Origin: an uncultured Bacilli bacterium
Lineage (GTDB): Bacteria > Bacillota_I > Bacilli_A > RF39 > UBA660
Length of the DNA stretch: 59,632 nt
Assembly (NCBI GenBank): GCA_904502155.1
Contig: CAJGDV010000001.1
Location: 1-59,632, forward strand
Reading direction: 5' to 3'
Shown: positions 50,890 through 59,631 of the stretch, piece by piece
Position numbering within the stretch: the first letter of the stretch is position 1
How the letters are laid out: every line of letters begins with the position of its first letter
The notes under the pieces: model-generated
What the model was told of the DNA's origin: nothing
Database searches by the model: none
The model's input: the letters and a program-made list of their open reading frames with translations, nothing else
Translations under genes and position numbers: made by a program

Positions 50890-52329
50890 ATGCAAGATGA
50901 TATTAGAAGAACTGTATTATTTTTAGTAAATGGTTTTGGTGTTGATAAAAGAGATATTTATGATATCTGTAATGATGCAATAATTCCTAATATAAATAAA
51001 TTAGCTAGTGAAAATATTTATAGTGCGATTGGGAATCTTTCTACTAATTATAAAAATGGATTTCGAATTTTTAGTACAAGTGATAAACAATTGCCAGGAT
51101 ATAGAACAGTTGCTCAAGATATAATTGACAACTATGATCACCATGAAAAATTTAATCAAATAGCTGAAAAGTTAGTTCAAGAAAATAAAAAATTGCATAT
51201 TTTTTGCTATCTTGACAATGATACAACTATTGATCATGCTAAAAATATAGTTAGATGTTTTAAAAATAAAAATGTAAGTAATATTTTTATACATGTTATA
51301 TTTAGAACATTTAAAGAACAAAATTATAAAATTATTGAAAAAAATATTAATAATATTAAATTAATTTCAACACAATATCCTGATGTTAAATTTGGAATGT
51401 TTTTTGGAAATGAACTTTTAGAAGATATTCAACAAACAAAAGATTTATATCAAATGTTAATTACTGAAGTAGGAGAAAGATGGCCTGATTTTGTACGTAA
51501 AATCGAAATATTAAGAGATAAAAATACAAAACCAGGTACTATTAAACCATTCTTTATTACAGGTGGATTTAAAGTAGAAGAAGGAGATTCAATATTATTC
51601 TTAAACTATGAATATGTAGATTATAGTAATTTTATTGAAATGTTATTAAATCCTAAATTACATTTTTCTTTATCAAAACTACCATTAAACGTAAAAGTTT
51701 ATTCATTATTTCCAATAAAGGCAAAAGTAGCTATTGAATCAGTATATGGCAATCAAGTATCAGAAAATTATTTAGTAAAATATTTAGATAAAATCAATGC
51801 TAAAGCATTAGTAATAACTAAAAAAGAAAAATTAACGTTTATAAATAATTTCCTAAATGGTATGCAAAATACTAAATCAGATAGATTGGATTTTATGATT
51901 ATTGACGATAATTTGCCAATAGCAAATATTGTTACTAATCCAAATTATCAACTTTATATTTTTGACTATGATATTGGTGACGTAAATAATATGGAGGAAT
52001 TAAAAAATCAACTTCATAAAGCTGATGCAATGCTTGGAAATGTTGCTCATCAATGTAAATTATATGATTATAGCTTATTTGTATCATCACTATATGGTAT
52101 TGAAAAAGAATGGAAGCGTGAAAATAATTTAGTATATATTATAAATTATGCTGTTCAAGTTCCTTTAATAGTTGTTGATAGATTAACAATTAAAGGGAAA
52201 CATTTTATTAACAACGGTAGTAATCAATACTTATTACCAACAGTTATTAAAAATATGAAAAAGGATTTAAATGTCCATTCAATGATTTCTGAAAAATCAC
52301 AAGGATTATTTTCATCATTTAAACTTTAA
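50890..52329 (+). CDS. degenerate homologue of cofactor-independent phosphoglycerate mutase (iPGM-like pseudoenzyme candidate)
   Basis: Collinear blocks against iPGM: LVNGFG vs ILDGFG, LHIFCYLDNDTTIDH vs LHLFGLLSDGGVHSH, NIFIHVIFRTF vs RVYIHGFLDGRD, DSILFLNYEYVD vs DAIIFYNFRPDR, VSSLYGI vs ITADHGN. Metal and catalytic residues are mostly replaced. Confidence 0.65.
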   Translation: MQDDIRRTVLFLVNGFGVDKRDIYDICNDAIIPNINKLASENIYSAIGNLSTNYKNGFRIFSTSDKQLPGYRTVAQDIIDNYDHHEKFNQIAEKLVQENKKLHIFCYLDNDTTIDHAKNIVRCFKNKNVSNIFIHVIFRTFKEQNYKIIEKNINNIKLISTQYPDVKFGMFFGNELLEDIQQTKDLYQMLITEVGERWPDFVRKIEILRDKNTKPGTIKPFFITGGFKVEEGDSILFLNYEYVDYSNFIEMLLNPKLHFSLSKLPLNVKVYSLFPIKAKVAIESVYGNQVSENYLVKYLDKINAKALVITKKEKLTFINNFLNGMQNTKSDRLDFMIIDDNLPIANIVTNPNYQLYIFDYDIGDVNNMEELKNQLHKADAMLGNVAHQCKLYDYSLFVSSLYGIEKEWKRENNLVYIINYAVQVPLIVVDRLTIKGKHFINNGSNQYLLPTVIKNMKKDLNVHSMISEKSQGLFSSFKL

Positions 52330-52410
52330 AAGAAGATGTCAAATTTTCTTTTTTTTTGTCAAATTTAAAAAAATTATATTGTAGTAGATTAAAATAAGTG
52401 ATAACATTGT

Positions 52411-52441
52411 TATAGTAGTATAGGGAAATTATACTACTATA
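52411..52441 (+). promoter_or_regulatory. perfect 12-bp inverted repeat (operator-like or 5' hairpin) upstream of the WXG-like gene array
   Basis: tatagtagtata-gggaaat-tatactactata. The left arm overlaps a TGtTATAGT extended -10-like box. Confidence 0.6.
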
Positions 52442-52452
52442 GAAAGTAGGTA

Positions 52453-52791
52453 GTGAGTATGGCTAATAATGTAATAGGTATAAATGAGGAAAATTTAAGT
52501 GCCCTAATTAATGAACTCAACAATTATATCGAAGACATCTCTAAGACTTTCAATGATATGGATGATATTATTGAAGGTACTAATGCTACATTTCAAGGTG
52601 AAGCTGGAGATGCTCTTAGAAATAAATATGACTACATTAAGTTAAACTTTCCAAGAATTTTAAATAACCTAGAAAGTTATACGAAAGATTTGGTTAAAAT
52701 TAGAAATAATTATGTTTCTTTTGAATCAAGTTTCACATTACCTGATTTTGAACTTGAGGGAGGAAATAAACAATGGGAAAAAGCGGATTAA
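52453..52791 (+). CDS. small helical T7SS-associated protein (WXG100/LXG-N-like with F-Q-G in place of W-x-G)
   Basis: 112 aa. FQGEAGDALRNKY at the centre. The start may be ATG 52459. Confidence 0.6.
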   Translation: MSMANNVIGINEENLSALINELNNYIEDISKTFNDMDDIIEGTNATFQGEAGDALRNKYDYIKLNFPRILNNLESYTKDLVKIRNNYVSFESSFTLPDFELEGGNKQWEKAD

Positions 52792-53090
52792 GCATAGATG
52801 CTATTACTCATGGTGTGTCATCTGAAGGTGTAGAAGCTTTATTAAGAGAAATACATTTAGAGATGATAATTAATGCAAAAACAAATCTTGAAAAAACACA
52901 AGATTTTGAAGCAGCAGTAAATGCTGGTTGGGAAGGACCAGACAAAGAAGTTTTTTTAAAAAACTGTGAAAAAATGAAAAATGAAATAAGTGAAGCGTTA
53001 CAAGGTTATTATGATCAAATAGAAGCTGAATTTAATGCAGTTATAAGTCATTGGGAAGAATTCCAAGCTTCAAACGTAAGTGCGCAATAA
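52773..53090 (+). CDS. WXG100-family protein
   Basis: 105 aa. W53-E-G (nt 52929-52937) lies centrally. GAGGGAGG RBS. 19-nt overlap with the preceding gene. Confidence 0.7.
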   Translation: MGKSGLSIDAITHGVSSEGVEALLREIHLEMIINAKTNLEKTQDFEAAVNAGWEGPDKEVFLKNCEKMKNEISEALQGYYDQIEAEFNAVISHWEEFQASNVSAQ

Positions 53091-53107
53091 AATAGGAGGA
53101 AGTTTAA

Positions 53108-53476
53108 ATGGCAATTAATAATATAGGTACTGTTGGGATTATCGAAGGCGAAATCGATAACATGAAAGCAGCGTTAAAAGTATATAAAGAAGGTATAGAT
53201 GAACCATTAGCTCAATTATCGAGTATGGTTGACTATGCACAAGCATTTAAAGGTTCTAATATTGCGGATAGCGTTAAAGGTTATTTAGAAAAAGCAATAG
53301 CTGAAATTAAAAAAATGACTGATTACTTATTAGAATTTGATACTGCTCTTGATACTGTTAGAGCTAATTATGAAGCTGAAGCATCAGCTGTTTCTCAAAA
53401 AGTTGGCGGAGACACAGACTCTGTTACTACTACTCAAATTAATACCAAAACTGGGGTAAACCCATTTGGTGGATAA
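53108..53476 (+). CDS. small helical T7SS-associated protein (WXG100-like with F-K-G)
   Basis: 122 aa. AFKGSNIADSVKGY lies centrally. AGGAGG RBS. Confidence 0.55.
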   Translation: MAINNIGTVGIIEGEIDNMKAALKVYKEGIDEPLAQLSSMVDYAQAFKGSNIADSVKGYLEKAIAEIKKMTDYLLEFDTALDTVRANYEAEASAVSQKVGGDTDSVTTTQINTKTGVNPFGG

Positions 53477-53490
53477 TAGGGTGATATAAA

Positions 53491-53847
53491 ATGATTTCAT
53501 CGAGTGAGTTAATACAAAGAAAAAATAATTATATTCAGTTACAAAATGATTTAGAGGGATTATCATCTAGTATGAAAAATAGTATGGATTCTTTAACGTT
53601 TGCAGTTAAGGGAATTAATAATTCATATTTGATAGATGGTGAACCAGCTGATTATAACAAAATTAGTGATGTTAATAGACGTAATAATGAATTATATAAT
53701 GAATTAGGAAAATGTAGAAATGCAATTAGTGCTAAAATTAGAGAATTAGAATCTCAAATAAAAAGTGCTTTATCATATGAAGCAGAGCAAAGACGTCTTC
53801 GTGAAGAAGAACTTGCTAGACAAAGAGAAGAGGCTAATAATGGCTAA
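53491..53847 (+). CDS. small helical protein, possibly YwqH/DUF5082-like T7SS helper
   Basis: 118 aa, predicted helical. The AISAKIRELESQIKS block and charged C-terminal tail suggest the family, but this is from memory only. Confidence 0.45.
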   Translation: MISSSELIQRKNNYIQLQNDLEGLSSSMKNSMDSLTFAVKGINNSYLIDGEPADYNKISDVNRRNNELYNELGKCRNAISAKIRELESQIKSALSYEAEQRRLREEELARQREEANNG

Positions 53848-54130
53848 TATAGAATTAGATACAATGAAAACTCAAAATATAGCGAGTAAGTTTAATGATA
53901 AAATAAACGTATATAATAATACAATGACTAATTTTTTTACAAAATTATGTTCAATTGGTGGAGCTGAAGGTGCTTGGACGGGTGATGATAGTATGAAGTT
54001 CGTCACTCGTGCACTTGAAGAAAAAAAAGTATACGAAGATTTCTCAGTTATATTAACAGAGTTTGCAAAAACTATTGATGAAAGTTGCGATGAAATAGCT
54101 ACTGCAGTAGCTAGATCAAGGATAAATTAA
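53840..54130 (+). CDS. WXG100-family protein (EsxA-like size)
   Basis: 96 aa from ATG 53840. W46-T-G (nt 53975-53983). The ORF-track start 53765 lies inside the previous gene. Confidence 0.7.
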   Translation: MANIELDTMKTQNIASKFNDKINVYNNTMTNFFTKLCSIGGAEGAWTGDDSMKFVTRALEEKKVYEDFSVILTEFAKTIDESCDEIATAVARSRIN

Positions 54131-54462
54131 TGGGAAATGTAAAAATGGCTAAATTATATTATAAGAGTGATTCTATTAAAGAATCTGTTCTTCCAAATAT
54201 TGTTGAAGCAAAAAACCATTTAAATGTATCTTTTTCAAAAGCAAATTCATTATCAGTTCCTAATGATTTTGGATATAGATCGTTCTTATTAAATTTACCT
54301 AATGAAATTAAAAAACTCGAAAACTCATGTGAAAACATACAAGTTTGGGCTAATAAAAGCATGCAAGCTGTAGATATGGCTTCTAGTGAGGTTGAAACAA
54401 AATTTAGTGGTATCGAGGTTGAGGAAATACCATTAAGAAGTGAATCAATTATATCGAAATAA
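54130..54462 (+). CDS. small helical protein, possibly YwqI/DUF5344-like T7SS helper
   Basis: 110 aa. The start shares one base with the previous stop. Weak pattern similarity only. Confidence 0.45.
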   Translation: MGNVKMAKLYYKSDSIKESVLPNIVEAKNHLNVSFSKANSLSVPNDFGYRSFLLNLPNEIKKLENSCENIQVWANKSMQAVDMASSEVETKFSGIEVEEIPLRSESIISK

Positions 54463-54492
54463 AAAAAGATGTGTTTCAATCACATCTTTTTT
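54463..54492. terminator. bidirectional intrinsic terminator between the convergent T7SS units
   Basis: aaaaagatgtg-tttcaat-cacatcttttt, with A-run and T-run flanks serving both strands. Confidence 0.8.
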
Positions 54493-54747
54493 TTACATTA
54501 ATATAAGATTACAACCTTGTTTTATTGTGCTTTCCTTAACAAGCTGATTAGGTTGATAAATTTCATTTGTTTCTCTATTATATAGACAAGCATTATTTGA
54601 AATAATATCTTCATTATTATTTAGTTCTCTTATAGACTTACATAACAATAGGATTACATTTCCTATTTTTTTGTTTAAAGGTATAAAAATTGTATACGTT
54701 TTTTCAATATCTGGAACAATAAGTTCAACAAGTATTTTACTATTCAT
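54493..54747 (-). CDS. esaB: YukD/EsaB-like ubiquitin-fold T7SS protein
   Basis: 84 aa. Pattern ..YTIFIP....IG.VI..L...I........I.......YN..T...Y.......ES.I..G..LIL is typical. 8-nt overlap with the essC stop. Confidence 0.75.
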   Translation of the reverse strand: MNSKILVELIVPDIEKTYTIFIPLNKKIGNVILLLCKSIRELNNNEDIISNNACLYNRETNEIYQPNQLVKESTIKQGCNLILM

Positions 54748-57700
54748 CTAAATTTCTCTCCTTATCAACAACATATTTAATTAGTGTATGTTTTCCTTTG
54801 TTAAGTACAAATGCCATGTAACGGAAATCAATTTTTCTTTCATCTAAAGATAAATTGTTGAATTTTAAAGACATTTGATTTGCTACATTACTTCCAAGCC
54901 ATATACCAGTAGTCATATCAACATTAGATCTAAACCACATTTCAGATTCAATATCTTTAAATTGTGTATAATTATCCATTATAATGAATTTGTTATTATT
55001 TTTTTCTGCAATTTTACTAAATACTTCATTGTAAATATTTTTTACATCTAAACTCAATAATTGTTTAAATTTAGATATTCCAAGGAAAATAAATACATTT
55101 TTTCCTGTCTTTGTTTCATCATTATTAAGTTCAATTGCAATTTTTTGAATTAAATCATCAAAGTCATTTTTGAAACAAGTAGCTTTAGAACAATTTGTAT
55201 CAAAAATATCTAATAAATCTATAACCCTAACTGTGACATTAGGAATATCTAATAAACTATCAATTAAACCATAAACGAATCCAATCTCATTTTCAATTGT
55301 TGAAGCAATTATAGGTGTAACAATATTTTTTTCAAAATCAAAATGGCATGTATTAACTTTTGATTTTCTTATACCAATTGAAACATTTTCTAAACTAATA
55401 GATTTATCTAAATCTTGTTTTTTAACAACTGATGGTAAAACAACAATCTTAGGTGCTTTAACATTAGGATATTTTTCATTAAATTTAGTTTCAAGATTAA
55501 TAATTGCTTTGTTCATTTCATCTTGTTTTGCAAACATTGCAGTTTGGAATTCATATGAGAAATCATCAATTTTTACAACTCCTCGACCAAACTTGTGTGC
55601 AGGAACAACTCCTCTATCAGTATTAAGTAAGTTTCTATAATCCATATCATTTGGAAGTTGTAAGGCTATACGATTTGGGAATATTTGAGTAATTCTTAAT
55701 CTTATACCTGAAGCAACTGATGATGTTATAAGGAAGTGAATACCGAATTTAGAACCATCTCTAAATAAAGCTGATAATTGGTCTTCTAATCTTGCATAAT
55801 TTTCAGCAAGAACTTCATATGAATTAATAATTACAGAAATCATTGGAATTTGTTGCCCAGATTCTTTAATATATGAATCATAAGAACCACCAAATTCACT
55901 AAATAAATCTTTTCTTCTTTCGATTTCCATTTGAAGTGTCATAATTAAATTATGTATTTTTTCACTTTCATCAATAAATACAACATCACCGACATGAGGA
56001 TATTTATTATATTTTTTTAGAGTTTCTGATCCAAAATCTAAAATATAAAAATTAATTTCACTTGGAGAATGATATAAAACAATTGAATTTATATAAGTTG
56101 ATATAAAGTTTTCTTTACCACTTCCAGGCATACCATATAAAACAATGTTTGCTTTTTTATTTAAATTAATTTTAAATAAACCTTGTGTTTGATTAGAAGG
56201 ATCATCATATTCTCCGATAATAGCATCTATTTCATATGGTTTTTGTGTTACGGCATATTTAATAATTAAATTATTAATTAATATTTCATCACTTAAGCTG
56301 TCTAGCCATAATTTTTTAGTTTTAATATTATTTTTATTTGCAAGTAGAGATAAATATTTAACAATATTTGTTAATTGTTCACCATGATCTTCTATATTTT
56401 CTCTTCTAATAACGTCATTAATAGATTTTATTATTTCGCCAGTGTTATTTATAAAATTAATTGAAGTATCAACTTTCTTGATAACTTTTTCTGTTGGTAC
56501 ATATTTAGCCCCAGCCCATGCTGATTGTCCTAATTCAAATAATTCATCATAACCAACTTGTAAATAAAATCTACCAGCTTCTTTAATACTAGCTGCTTCT
56601 GGACGTTTTAGCATTTCCATACTATCAGATCTTGTTGCAACTTTTAAACATATTTTAAATTTAGAGTTTGACCAAATTTGATCATTAACAACTCCACTTG
56701 GTTTTTGTGTTGCTAAAATTAAATGTACACCTAATGAACGACCAATTCTTGCTGTTTGAACAAGTTGACTCATAAATTCAGGTTGTTGACTTTTTAATTC
56801 GGCAAATTCGTCTGATACGATAAATAAATGTGCTATTGGTTCTGTAATAACACCTTCTCGATAAAGTTTTTGATATTTATAAATATCAATAGTACTTTCT
56901 CCAAGGTTATCACGAACATCATTAAATAATTTTTGTCTTCTTTTAAGTTCACTTTGAATTGATACTAATGAACGATTAATTTCATTTGTATCAAGGTTTG
57001 TAATAGTACCAATTAGATGTGGAACTCTAACACCAGTTTCCTTATTTTCAAAAGCACCTGCTAAACCTCCACCCTTATAATCTATTAATACAAATTGTAC
57101 TTCATCAGGACTATAATTTATACACATAGATAAAATATATGTAATTATAAATTCAGATTTACCACTACCTGTTGAACCAGCGATTAAACCATGAGGTCCA
57201 TGATGTTTTTCGTGTAAATCCAATTTAAATGTTTCACCTTGTTCGTTAACTCCAATTGGAGTAGATAAAGATACAATTGGATTACTAATTTTCCATCTAT
57301 GGGCAATATTTAATTGCTCGATTTTTCCTACATTAAACATTTCCAAGAAAGATACTAAAGATGGTAGTTGTTGAATACCTTTAATAGGTGCAACAGGAAT
57401 ATTAGCTAATTCACTAACCATTCTTTGCATATCTATAAGTGGATTATAATCTGGTATGAAATTTTTTTGTTTATTACTTGCAAGTTCTTTTTCAAATACA
57501 CAACTTGTTTTTTTAACAACATAGGCATATGTTGTACAGTCATTTGGAATATTTTTCATAAGATTTTCAAATAAGCATAAAGAAAATCCAAAATTTGTAG
57601 GATGATTTAAAAGATTTGTAATAAATTTATTAGATTTAATATTTATATAATTATCTGTAATAATTAAATAATATGGTAAATAATTTTTAAATGCTTCTTG

Positions 57701-59320
57701 ACCATTAAATTCTTGGTCTAACATTTTTGTATTTCCAGCTATTTGTTCAAATCTTTCATTGAATTGGTGTTCTAAATATTGTAATACTTTTTTTGCTTCT
57801 TCATTAGTTGATGCAAAAAATCTTACACTTTTATCATCACTAAATAAATGTGGTAATGTTTTTAAATATTCCCATTTATATTCGTTTTCTTTATCAGTTA
57901 GAAAAACTAATTTTAAATCATTAGGACTATGAAAAGTCATTAATTGTAATAATAATCCATTTAAAAAATCTTGTTCGAATGGGCAGTTACATACTACAGC
58001 CATTATTTTATTTTTAATAAAATCTATTGTAACTGGCACATTATTTAAACTTGTATATTTATCTTTTAAATTAAGAACACTTTCTAATAAATTATCATCT
58101 TCCATTGTAAAATGTTCTTCTGGAGCTTTTATAGATATTGATAATGGAGCATTACCAAGTCCTACTCGAACATTTAAAAAATCATTATCATTTATTTCAC
58201 GATTCCATACTTTATCTTTGTTATTTACAATTATTTCTGCACATTCTGCTAAAGTAATATTATTTTCATGTAATATTTGAGAATGTTGTTTCATAATTAT
58301 ATTAATTTGATTTTCCTTATTATTAAGATATTCTGTATATCTTTTTTGTCTTTTTTCTTCCATTTTATGCATCATTTTCTTTTGATATGCTTTTAATAAT
58401 CTAGGCATAACAATTGAACCTATTACCATAGTTACACATAATATTAAATTTGGAATAACTTGACCAAAAGTTTTATTTCCGCTTGATACATCATTGTAAG
58501 CGTTATAAGCTGAAATACCTGAAAAAGCTATCATTGTTAAACTAGAACCCATTGATAACAAGAATGGGATATCTTCTTTTAAATAAGAAGCTGGTGGAGC
58601 CTCAATAACAATTTCTTTTTCTTCTATAACTGTTCTAAGTCTTGGTTTATGAAAAAAATAATCTTCCTCATTAATAACAATTTCTTCATCTGGATTAGAA
58701 GGAGTATATTGTGTATTATCTTCTCTTGGTCCTTGTTCCATAAGTTGTAATTTAGCACTTGTCATAACTCTATTACCAGGATTATTTATTTTCATAAAAT
58801 TACCCATCCATATAATTTTTAATCCACCAATAAAAATTATATCTCCAGTTTTTAATTTCTTATTTATAACTCTTTGATGATTAACATAAACTCTAAAGTT
58901 ATCTTCAGCATTGCTATCCAAAATATACCAATGATTATCTTTGTAAACAATTGATGCTTCAAAAACAGATATTAAATTTGATGATAAACTAATATCTGAA
59001 TTCATATCATTACCTATAGAAATACTATTAATTCCATTAAAAGAAACATAACGGTGATTTTCTTCAATTTTTGGTGCGACATGAAGATAAATTAATTCCT
59101 TATTATTTTTTATTGCTAATTGATAACTACAATAAGGTCTTAATTCAACTTTGGGTTCAGAATTAACACTTACAGTATTATCATTTACTAAATACCATGA
59201 TCCATTTTCTGCAACAATATTTAAATATATTTTCTTATATTTAAATAGTACATTTTCATCAATGATGTCGGGCAAATCATAAGAAACTAGTCTATTACTA
59301 CTTTCTACATATAGTCTCAT
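54740..59320 (-). CDS. essC: T7SS FtsK/SpoIIIE-family ATPase EssC/YukB
   Basis: 1526 aa. Tandem N-terminal FHA-like domains, two TM helices, Walker A GSTGSGKS (module 1) and GMPGSGKE (module 2). I find no clear P-loop in module 3. Confidence 0.92.
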   Translation of the reverse strand: MRLYVESSNRLVSYDLPDIIDENVLFKYKKIYLNIVAENGSWYLVNDNTVSVNSEPKVELRPYCSYQLAIKNNKELIYLHVAPKIEENHRYVSFNGINSISIGNDMNSDISLSSNLISVFEASIVYKDNHWYILDSNAEDNFRVYVNHQRVINKKLKTGDIIFIGGLKIIWMGNFMKINNPGNRVMTSAKLQLMEQGPREDNTQYTPSNPDEEIVINEEDYFFHKPRLRTVIEEKEIVIEAPPASYLKEDIPFLLSMGSSLTMIAFSGISAYNAYNDVSSGNKTFGQVIPNLILCVTMVIGSIVMPRLLKAYQKKMMHKMEEKRQKRYTEYLNNKENQINIIMKQHSQILHENNITLAECAEIIVNNKDKVWNREINDNDFLNVRVGLGNAPLSISIKAPEEHFTMEDDNLLESVLNLKDKYTSLNNVPVTIDFIKNKIMAVVCNCPFEQDFLNGLLLQLMTFHSPNDLKLVFLTDKENEYKWEYLKTLPHLFSDDKSVRFFASTNEEAKKVLQYLEHQFNERFEQIAGNTKMLDQEFNGQEAFKNYLPYYLIITDNYINIKSNKFITNLLNHPTNFGFSLCLFENLMKNIPNDCTTYAYVVKKTSCVFEKELASNKQKNFIPDYNPLIDMQRMVSELANIPVAPIKGIQQLPSLVSFLEMFNVGKIEQLNIAHRWKISNPIVSLSTPIGVNEQGETFKLDLHEKHHGPHGLIAGSTGSGKSEFIITYILSMCINYSPDEVQFVLIDYKGGGLAGAFENKETGVRVPHLIGTITNLDTNEINRSLVSIQSELKRRQKLFNDVRDNLGESTIDIYKYQKLYREGVITEPIAHLFIVSDEFAELKSQQPEFMSQLVQTARIGRSLGVHLILATQKPSGVVNDQIWSNSKFKICLKVATRSDSMEMLKRPEAASIKEAGRFYLQVGYDELFELGQSAWAGAKYVPTEKVIKKVDTSINFINNTGEIIKSINDVIRRENIEDHGEQLTNIVKYLSLLANKNNIKTKKLWLDSLSDEILINNLIIKYAVTQKPYEIDAIIGEYDDPSNQTQGLFKINLNKKANIVLYGMPGSGKENFISTYINSIVLYHSPSEINFYILDFGSETLKKYNKYPHVGDVVFIDESEKIHNLIMTLQMEIERRKDLFSEFGGSYDSYIKESGQQIPMISVIINSYEVLAENYARLEDQLSALFRDGSKFGIHFLITSSVASGIRLRITQIFPNRIALQLPNDMDYRNLLNTDRGVVPAHKFGRGVVKIDDFSYEFQTAMFAKQDEMNKAIINLETKFNEKYPNVKAPKIVVLPSVVKKQDLDKSISLENVSIGIRKSKVNTCHFDFEKNIVTPIIASTIENEIGFVYGLIDSLLDIPNVTVRVIDLLDIFDTNCSKATCFKNDFDDLIQKIAIELNNDETKTGKNVFIFLGISKFKQLLSLDVKNIYNEVFSKIAEKNNNKFIIMDNYTQFKDIESEMWFRSNVDMTTGIWLGSNVANQMSLKFNNLSLDERKIDFRYMAFVLNKGKHTLIKYVVDKERNLDE

Positions 59321-59379
59321 AATTACCTCCTATTATACTATAACAATTATACCATATAAAAAAGATAATTACATTAGCA

Positions 59380-59631
59380 TTATCTTATTTTTTTAGATTT
59401 GAAACAGTGAGCATAAAAACCTAAACAATTAATATGTTCCTTAGGTTTTTTATATTCATATATTTCAAGATCATTAGGATTATAATTTTTATATTTTACA
59501 ATATCTGGAAATTCTAAAATTACTTTATCTAATAATTCATCTAAATTATCAAATTCATAAACACCTTTTAATTTATCCCAAGAATGTTCAAACCAATAAT
59601 ATTTATTATTTTCTTCATAAACTAAAAATGT
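59380..59631 (-). CDS. 3' end of an unidentified ORF upstream of essC (83 codons visible, start beyond window)
   Basis: Hand translation of the - strand: ..YYWFEHSWDKLKGVYEFDNLDELLDKVILEFPDIVKY...CFKSKKIR, stop at 59380-59382. An 83-codon open frame is unlikely by chance in AT-rich DNA. Confidence 0.5.
   Translation of the reverse strand, partial: TFLVYEENNKYYWFEHSWDKLKGVYEFDNLDELLDKVILEFPDIVKYKNYNPNDLEIYEYKKPKEHINCLGFYAHCFKSKKIR

Follow-up and report, generated by a model that had tools for sequence, protein, structure and literature searches.

The window analysed here is the whole of contig C1 (CAJGDV010000001.1, 59,632 nucleotides (nt)) of the assembly GCA_904502155.1 from an uncultured Bacilli bacterium (1.25 Mb in 145 contigs, ~26% G+C, 84% complete). 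At positions 52453–54462 it carries an array of six co-directional open reading frames (ORFs) of 96–122 amino acids (aa), here named A to F, which lies beside essC, the predicted motor gene of a type VIIb secretion system (T7SSb). We consider it probable that the array represents one copy of a conserved cassette of six genes, co-evolving with one EssC lineage in uncultured, small-genome Bacilli of the gut and rumen, and, as part of the same reading, that its products are made in fixed ratios, form helical bundles exported by EssC and include a carrier split between E and F. By motif and profile comparison A, B, C and E belong to the WXG100/ESAT-6 superfamily or are clearly related to it, while D and F are predicted to represent two further, nameless families of helical hairpins. 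The six genes are:

52459–52791 (alternative GTG start at 52453), + strand: gene A, a predicted WXG100-superfamily hairpin without the Trp and with F-Q-G at the turn (Pfam, hhalign)
52773–53090, + strand: gene B, 105 aa, which carries the WxG motif (W53-E-G55) and a conserved, export-signal-like C-terminal tail (orthologue alignment)
53108–53476, + strand: gene C, 122 aa, a WXG100-like hairpin whose turn reads A-x-K-G (hhalign, alignment A6)
53491–53847, + strand: gene D, 118 aa, a helical hairpin of an unnamed family (AlphaFold2)
53840–54130, + strand: gene E, 96 aa, a WxG protein (W46-T-G48) (orthologue alignment)
54130–54462, + strand: gene F, a helical hairpin with a conserved S-x-P-x-D-F turn, of a large unnamed family (AlphaFold2, profile search)

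Conservation of the cassette

The array was compared across 95 EssC loci, 15 of them from the nearest 60 genomes and 79 from an EssC-alignment scan of GTDB species representatives, plus the window. EssC orthologues in the 94 other loci are 36–49% identical. The relatives found in this way are titled “uncultured Bacilli”, “Candidatus Onthousia”, “Candidatus Coprovivens” and “Mycoplasmatota”, which would place them in an RF39-type lineage. The source metagenomes are from rumen and from rabbit, mouse and human gut, and genome sizes range over 0.8–1.3 Mb. All ORFs of the 95 loci were searched with phmmer and iterated profiles, and each of the six gave first-round matches (E down to 1e-14) at corresponding positions. 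The family counts below come from hidden Markov models built from the curated alignments A2–A7.

Each of the six genes has orthologues in about 20 other species. All six families stand beside essC–yukD in 20 of the 95 loci, and the order is A-B-C-D-E-F in 17 of these. In the other three loci the blocks are permuted (BC|ADEF in two, DEF|ABC in one), and BC and DEF each stay intact. Most other loci (38) have E-type genes only; since the families are found either all together or mostly as E alone, the set appears to be inherited in an all-or-none manner. On the EssC tree the presence of the cassette is clustered, with 10 label changes as compared with a mean of 23.5 in shuffles, none of 500 shuffles being as low. 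One EssC clade holds 21 cassette loci among its 28 rows, several of the exceptions being contigs too short for the flank to be seen, and the EssC of the window groups with those of loci L054, L055 and L058, where the cassettes are likewise bare and the C proteins short. Within the species the six genes are intact in at least 10 other assemblies, which together with the orthologues and the low dN/dS outside B supports them as real genes, and the layout beside essC and the yukD-like gene recurs in other assemblies. As judged from these comparisons, the array is not peculiar to this genome and is an instance of a widespread, fixed cassette. A preliminary description of this DNA, made from its letters, had named a lack of conservation next to essC in relatives as a result that would speak against its interpretation; the array is conserved there in 20 other species.

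An initial idea that the six were orphan genes came from nearly empty BLAST searches of the regions around essC in the 15 relatives collected first, from the same GTDB family; it was overturned by the 79 further loci and by profile iteration. A literature search on RF39 and type VII secretion found no paper describing the six-gene cassette. Some essC loci of the Bacilli type are filed under Saccharibacteria or Muribaculaceae metagenome-assembled genomes (L131, L060, L093, L106, L118 and L123), which is probably mis-binning, not transfer.

Family membership and fold of the six proteins

Protein A is the sole window protein that passes the Pfam WXG100 model (PF06013) on its own, with 28.9 bits against a cut-off of 27.3, and it is also matched by TIGR03930 (E=9e-7). 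Its F-Q-G is not conserved in the family (19 orthologues in alignment A4). Window proteins B, C, D, E and F fall below the PF06013 gathering score, and B, D and F have no relevant match in the Pfam and TIGR searches. The membership of B and E is carried by their orthologues. All 23 B-family sequences have W53 and G55, and 17 of them match PF06013 at E<=0.01; in the E family W46 and G48 are near-invariant in 35 sequences, with 25 matching at the same threshold (best E=5e-13), and the window E itself is matched by TIGR03930 with E=0.006. The E family is present in 65 of the 95 EssC loci and is the commonest small-protein family there; it constitutes the general WXG100 of this clade.

Only a few C orthologues match named families (EspC in 3/23, WXG100 in 2/23), and the window C shows a weak match to positions 136–186 of the Pfam LXG model (E=0.006). 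It is a short form, as most orthologues possess an N-terminal extension of ~50 aa. Full-length profile–profile alignments are strong for A with E (hhalign 97.1%, score 60) and for A with C (97%, score 63), and moderate for A–B, B–C and B–E (scores 35–38), while a reversed-template control gave mostly 14–24 and once 32.2. The helix-turn-helix fold of A, B, C and E is deduced from these full-length colinear alignments.

The preliminary description had recognized six ~100-aa helical proteins, of which two were true WxG proteins and four divergent partners. The motifs it pointed to (W53-E-G in B, W46-T-G in E, F-Q-G in A and F-K-G in C) are present, and B and E are borne out as genuine WxG families with an invariant or near-invariant WxG; the division into two and four does not hold as drawn, because A alone passes the Pfam model and C is a strong profile relative of A. 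It also remarked that A recalls the start of LXG domains; A marginally passes the LXG model PF04740 (26.6 versus 26.5 bits, LXG positions 10–90 only), and the array has no protein with a ~200-aa LXG domain followed by a toxin domain.

The remaining two proteins, D and F, had been likened to the LXG-toxin helpers YwqH/DUF5082 (PF16888) and YwqI/DUF5344, and this likeness was not upheld. Neither window protein matches either model at E<=1, and DUF5344 is listed for none of the six window proteins at that threshold. A single D orthologue out of 20 matches DUF5082, weakly (E=0.0043), and no match at E<=0.1 was seen among 20 F orthologues. For DUF5344 the 20 F orthologues likewise give nothing at E<=0.1, and the family is not among the 25 most-matched of the 71 families hit by D orthologues. 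At E<=0.1, PF06013 is likewise absent from the 24 families matched by F orthologues and not among the 25 most-matched for D. The AlphaFold2 model of D, built with 20 sequences, has a predicted local distance difference test (pLDDT) score of 95.8 and consists of helices 4–45 and 57–117, joined by a short turn (Y-x-I-D-x-x-x-A-D), the second helix being long and charged. The model of F, built with a 20-sequence alignment, has a pLDDT of 83, above 90 in the core, with helices 13–39 and 50–93. Both are thus modelled as helix-turn-helix hairpins, the fold that had been expected of the whole array. Sequence-profile searches of the PDB with the D and F families returned coiled-coil noise only (haemagglutinin HA2, tropomyosin).

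Among 1.84 billion proteins the F profile matches 1,112 representatives at E<=1e-3, of which 424 reach E<=1e-10. Of the best 150 of the 1,112 representatives, all but two are stand-alone proteins of 96–114 aa. F is a large unnamed family in which the cargo-less form is the rule. D and F are two sizeable families without a Pfam model; clustered at 50% identity, F has more than 1,000 representatives. The products of the array are all acidic (isoelectric points 4.3–5.8), and none has a hydrophobic or transmembrane segment (maximal 19-residue Kyte-Doolittle mean 0.78).

Gene fusions, partners and cargo

All fusions found among the relatives follow the gene order. B and C form a single ~240-aa protein in four species, and E and F are fused in three (L066, L042 and L132), the product being 184–198 aa long in two of them and carrying a long tail in L132. 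A similar E-F-tail layout is seen in L102, where the F part was recognized by profile and the E part was read by eye from motifs. Tails of more than 120 aa follow F or E-F in L113, L036, L132 and L102. These fusions provide Rosetta-stone evidence for B:C and E:F contacts, and the attachment of F or E-F to cargo tails suggests that either can serve as a carrier for export. In the permuted loci A still adjoins D-E-F.

In L113 (4480–5670) an F-like hairpin begins a protein of 396 aa whose C-terminus is glycine-rich and hydrophobic; in L036 (13294–14667) it begins one of 457 aa, which has a LysM domain (E=4e-14) and a C-terminus that is wall-hydrolase-like by eye only. Both are candidates for wall-binding or membrane-active cargo exported by a type VII route without signal peptides.

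No such extension exists in the array. As the preliminary description had observed, it contains no cargo, toxin or immunity gene and no ORF longer than 122 aa. The search for LXG proteins that it had suggested returned no PF04740 match over the cut-off in the whole genome; elsewhere in the genome there is no second WXG100 (PF06013) and no credible match to the six family profiles, and the six have no paralogues. The statement that there is no cargo stands for this genome, given the 16% that is missing.

In the relatives two further kinds of gene accompany the cassette. DUF4176 genes occur in 24 related loci and a HExxH lipoprotein in 12; neither was found in the genome of the window. The DUF4176 proteins of L057 (18901–19476 and 19497–20393) are encoded downstream of F and have C-terminal extensions with a repeated F-D-E-N-G-V-V motif. 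The lipoprotein, of ~550 aa (L057:14932–16596 and the 12-locus cluster 17), flanks the cassette and has a lipoprotein-type signal (…LSSGC…) and a HExxH motif and no Pfam match.

Gene B and its variation between strains

B orthologues end in a hydrophobic-xxx-[D/Q]-xx-L tail, which resembles the first part of the HxxxD/ExxhxxxH type VII signal (PMC10765036). Between strains (L053, L133, L136 and L137) B is only 75–92% identical in aa sequence as compared with 96–100% for A, C, D, E and F. In two strains 10.5 nonsynonymous stand against 1.5 synonymous differences, a ratio of nonsynonymous to synonymous rates (dN/dS) of 1.66. The changes are confined to residues 26–78, around the WxG tip, with none in the first 25 or the last 27 residues. 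Where A, C and E have enough substitutions, their dN/dS is 0.04–0.26; F has 0.73 in one strain, on four substitutions only. Synonymous divergence (dS) is raised across A-B-C, which suggests a recombination tract.

This pattern suits an exported protein, with a conserved end for export or partner binding and an exposed tip that would be under selection; the strain-level hypervariability points to a surface under outside pressure. A word-index homologue search with B returned close variants only (at least 73% identity), which is informative on strain variation, not on remote homology.

Operon architecture and regulatory sites

The coordinates and the overlaps of 19 nt (A/B), 8 nt (D/E) and 1 nt (E/F) agree with those given for the six ORFs in the preliminary description, apart from the start of A and possibly that of F, and the genes are tightly coupled, as it had stated. 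Gaps of 17 nt and 14 nt separate B from C and C from D, and adjacent array genes are never in the same reading frame. A purine-rich ribosome-binding site (RBS) lies 7–10 nt 5' of every start, for example GAGGGAGGA before B and AGGAGG before C. For A, the ATG at 52459 (110 aa) is likelier than the GTG at 52453 (112 aa), on the basis of RBS spacing and of the gene calls in six other assemblies. For F, the Met conserved in the family corresponds to M6 of the window protein (ATG 54145, 105 aa), whereas RBS spacing favours 54130 (110 aa). Gene E is nested in a longer ORF that starts at 53765. Three putative regulatory sites border the array:

52389–52416, + strand: promoter-like site with an extended -10 (TG-TATAGT), from a consensus scan, 9/12 matches with TG
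52410–52442, + strand: 12-bp inverted repeat without mismatches (TATAGTAGTATA and TATACTACTATA, 7 nt apart), located between the promoter-like site and gene A
54461–54493, no strand assigned: bidirectional intrinsic terminator (A-tract, 13-bp stem including A-U pairs, U-tract), common to the array and the convergent yukD-like gene

The terminator (-13.0 kcal/mol, z = -5.85) was equalled by none of 200 shuffles. As it lies after F and is shared with the last gene of the convergent essC operon, the six genes appear to form their own transcription unit. The promoter-like site is weak evidence, such sites being no more frequent in the whole region than in shuffled sequence. A TTGTTATAGTA box of the extended -10 type is common to the promoter-like region of the array (52406–52424) and the region upstream of essC (59335–59350), which hints at common regulation of the two. 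The inverted repeat folds at -14.1 kcal/mol (z = -5.3 versus shuffles) and could be an operator or a 5' leader hairpin; this palindrome is found at the array only, not in the essC upstream region.

Immediately upstream of the array lies a divergent, iPGM-like gene of 479 aa (50890–52329), which scores 57.7 bits against TIGR01307, the cut-off of which is 330 bits. It accompanies the array only within the species, being 82% identical in the most divergent strain with a dN/dS of 0.16. Its assignment as the counterpart of the ~550-aa gene that flanks the cassette in relatives was rejected, as the two show no homology and the relatives' gene is the HExxH lipoprotein.

EssC and the reduced secretion apparatus

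Two genes on the opposite strand converge on the array:

54740–59320, - strand: essC, 1526 aa, N-terminal FHA domain (Pfam E=1e-5) and FtsK/SpoIIIE ATPase domains (E=1.4e-54)
54493–54747, - strand: candidate YukD/EsaB-like, ubiquitin-like protein of 84 aa, directly downstream of essC

From its domains the product of essC is identified as the T7SSb motor. A gene of the 84-aa type directly follows essC in 88 of the 95 loci. The tentative assignment to YukD comes from 6 of 34 orthologues, which match PF08817 below threshold (best E=0.0017), and a few match ubiquitin-like families; the window protein itself has no Pfam match, an exact look-up found no record of it, and the family profile matches no PDB chain. 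No candidate for EsaA or EssA was seen in the essC flanks of longer assemblies of the same species, no profile search having been aimed at either. Among the 400–555-aa ORFs upstream of essC in relatives, EssB-like candidates were considered; those that could be identified are SRP54/Ffh, MurJ-like and GH3 proteins, and three have no Pfam match. Genes upstream of essC in this and related species comprise DUF553-like, NUDIX, SRP54, MurJ-like and GH3 genes.

The 167-aa gene next to essC (partial in the window at 59380–59631; L047:16608–17111) immediately precedes essC in L054 and L055 as well. In L055 its product shows a weak match to the transglutaminase-like DUF553 (E=3e-7), and the genome of the window has paralogues on contigs C27 and C56. 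Loci L057 and L086 each contain two essC genes within 10 kb, so that the T7SS motor can be duplicated in tandem. In strain L137 (3035–4337) transposase-type genes (HTH_21, HTH_Tnp_1) and an SNase-domain gene follow F instead of yukD/essC, and this strain may have lost or moved its motor.

Proposed mechanism and alternatives

The array is probably a T7SSb substrate or targeting set, the six proteins being the likely exported proteins of the system. In the proposed mechanism, which we hold to be probable together with the cassette reading, the six would be produced in fixed ratios from one transcript and would assemble in the cytoplasm into hetero-oligomeric helical bundles, at least as the pairs B:C and E:F. 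B:C would correspond to an ESAT-6/CFP-10-like pair, and A and D would be further partners of the E:F unit, in the way that Lap proteins or EsxC/EsxD partner an LXG domain. The adjacent EssC ATPase would recognize and export the bundles, with B supplying a CFP-10-like C-terminal signal. E-F would represent a split LXG-like carrier, which is a single polypeptide in a few relatives and in which F or E-F may be extended by cargo. In the present genome the carrier would end after the hairpin and the complex would leave the cell without enzymatic cargo; the secreted helical proteins would then themselves be the product, and the strain-variable tip of B the part facing outside. The proposal of a split carrier with A and D as partners rests on the fusions, the block permutations and the published needs of LXG–Lap complexes: LXG domains require two or three WXG100-like partners, with which they form rod-like pre-secretion complexes, and loss of the toxin domain does not prevent the export of an LXG–Lap–Lap trimer (PMC10801868, PMC10765036).

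Several points weigh against this interpretation. From sequence we infer the transcription, complex formation, secretion, stoichiometry and function of the six, and the B:C and E:F pairings derive from fusions that occur in other species. The profile alignments of D and F are weak, with hhalign scores of 32–35 (D–E 75%, 32; F–E 88.5%, 35; D–F within the same range), and because the reversed-template control reached a score of 32 their link to the WXG100 superfamily is downgraded to suggestive. A Foldseek search of the PDB with the D model gave nothing below E=0.1, with LapA3/A4, EsxA/B and CFP-10 sitting among generic hairpins (Rad50, UvsY), none of them significant, so that comparison of folds does not discriminate between these families. 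The tail of the window B reads W-E-E-F-Q-A-S-N, with Q in the D/E position of the signal and N in place of the L found in most orthologues. A search of the 84%-complete genome for EssB/YukC (PF10140) returned nothing at E<=1, and on longer contigs of the same species essC is preceded by the 167-aa gene and then by NUDIX and unrelated genes. Secretion by such a reduced apparatus is therefore putative. The lack of DUF4176 and HExxH lipoprotein genes, finally, means that this copy might be a degenerate remnant.

A more far-reaching version, which we regard as rather doubtful, is that the six hairpins form one defined hetero-oligomer (e.g. B:C + A:D:E:F), which would itself be what a minimal type VII system secretes, one consisting of EssC and the 84-aa helper, without EssA, EssB and EsaA. 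In these host-dependent Bacilli with small genomes its role would be extracellular, as a contact structure or a membrane-active one, where the tip of B would meet the host, a competitor or phage, and the cargo fusions of F or E-F in relatives would be secondary to an originally cargo-less carrier.

The array could instead encode targeting factors or chaperones, orphan Lap-like escorts, for a cargo located elsewhere. The incompleteness of the assembly (84%, 145 contigs) leaves room for such a gene, relatives fuse F, E-F and other E-like hairpins to cargo tails, and LXG toxins are known away from the core locus (PMC10765036). This is nevertheless unlikely, as no other ORF of the genome credibly matches PF04740, PF06013 or the six profiles, the best-scoring members of the F family are nearly all stand-alone proteins of ~103 aa, which makes a cargo-less F the norm, and the closest relatives L054, L055 and L058 have bare cassettes as well. 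Alternatively the six might remain inside as cytoplasmic or machine-associated parts of a reduced T7SS, functionally replacing EssA/EssB/EsaA or regulating EssC. The undetectable EssB/YukC, the essC flanks that hold housekeeping genes only, here and in related species, and the all-or-none, machine-like inheritance with one EssC lineage would agree with such a role, to which we assign a low probability: proteins with no membrane segment could not replace membrane components, four of the six belong by profile to a superfamily whose characterized members are secreted or co-secreted (PMC10765036), and the diversifying variation of B is more typical of an exposed or secreted protein.

Decay of the array into a functionless remnant of a nine-gene module, made of the cassette, the DUF4176 proteins and the HExxH lipoprotein, appears very improbable. 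Its appeal lies in the presence of DUF4176 in 24 related loci and of the ~550-aa lipoprotein in 12, neither being found in this genome, and in the insertion sequence (IS)-type genes that stand after F in L137 in place of yukD/essC. All six frames are, however, intact in every assembly examined, the RBSs and the terminator are preserved, and the bare layout is shared by a whole EssC sub-clade (the window, L054, L055 and L058). Purifying selection on A and C–F, with dN/dS values of 0.04–0.26 for A, C and E, also argues against decay.

Relation to known systems and significance

A close parallel in layout is provided by EsxA, EsxB, EsxC, EsxD and EsaD of Staphylococcus aureus, where ~100-aa hairpins also lie beside essC and WXG100 proteins (EsxA, EsxB) are mixed with motif-less ones (EsxC, EsxD). 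These Esx proteins form hetero-complexes and are co-secreted (PMC10765036). There, however, three partners serve the large LXG nuclease EsaD, which comes with the chaperone EsaE and the immunity protein EsaG, whereas the array has six genes in fixed order and none of these; orthology to EsxC or EsxD was not detected at the sequence level for the array proteins.

In Streptococcus intermedius, TelC with Lap1 and Lap2 and TelA with Lap3 (DUF5344) and Lap4 (DUF5082) show how small helical partners encoded beside a carrier yield a rod-like complex that is enough for export (PMC10801868). E-F resembles a split LXG-type carrier, and D and A are placed like the Lap genes. Unlike the Lap proteins, D and F match no DUF5082, DUF5344, DUF3130 or DUF3958 profile, and the carrier is split and has no toxin domain. 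The B-C pair fits the arrangement of ESAT-6/CFP-10 (EsxA/EsxB) of Mycobacterium tuberculosis and its paralogous pairs, in which adjacent, co-translated WXG100 genes encode a four-helix bundle with a C-terminal signal on one partner. The machine next to the array is of the T7SSb type (FHA-EssC), in contrast to ESX, the window B has Q and not D/E in its signal, and the pair is part of a six-gene set. Export by a T7SSb from a multi-protein assembly encoded in one co-expressed gene run is also described for the seven-protein TelE assembly of Streptococcus gallolyticus (bioRxiv 10.64898/2026.03.12.711312), but that assembly includes an LXG pore-forming toxin, a six-transmembrane protein and an immunity protein, none of which is present in the array.

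The biology of the T7SSb has been drawn from a few cultured Firmicutes, in which small WXG100-like proteins are mostly seen as escorts of LXG toxins. The cassette contrasts with this picture, as it is a fixed set of six proteins, inherited with one EssC lineage in many uncultured gut and rumen species, usually toxin-free, and in this genome found where EssB is undetected. The fusions B-C, E-F and F-cargo offer testable predictions of the binding partners. The cassette would thereby be a natural minimal test case for what EssC needs in order to recognize a substrate, for how WXG100-like proteins form higher-order complexes, and for T7SS export without a toxin.

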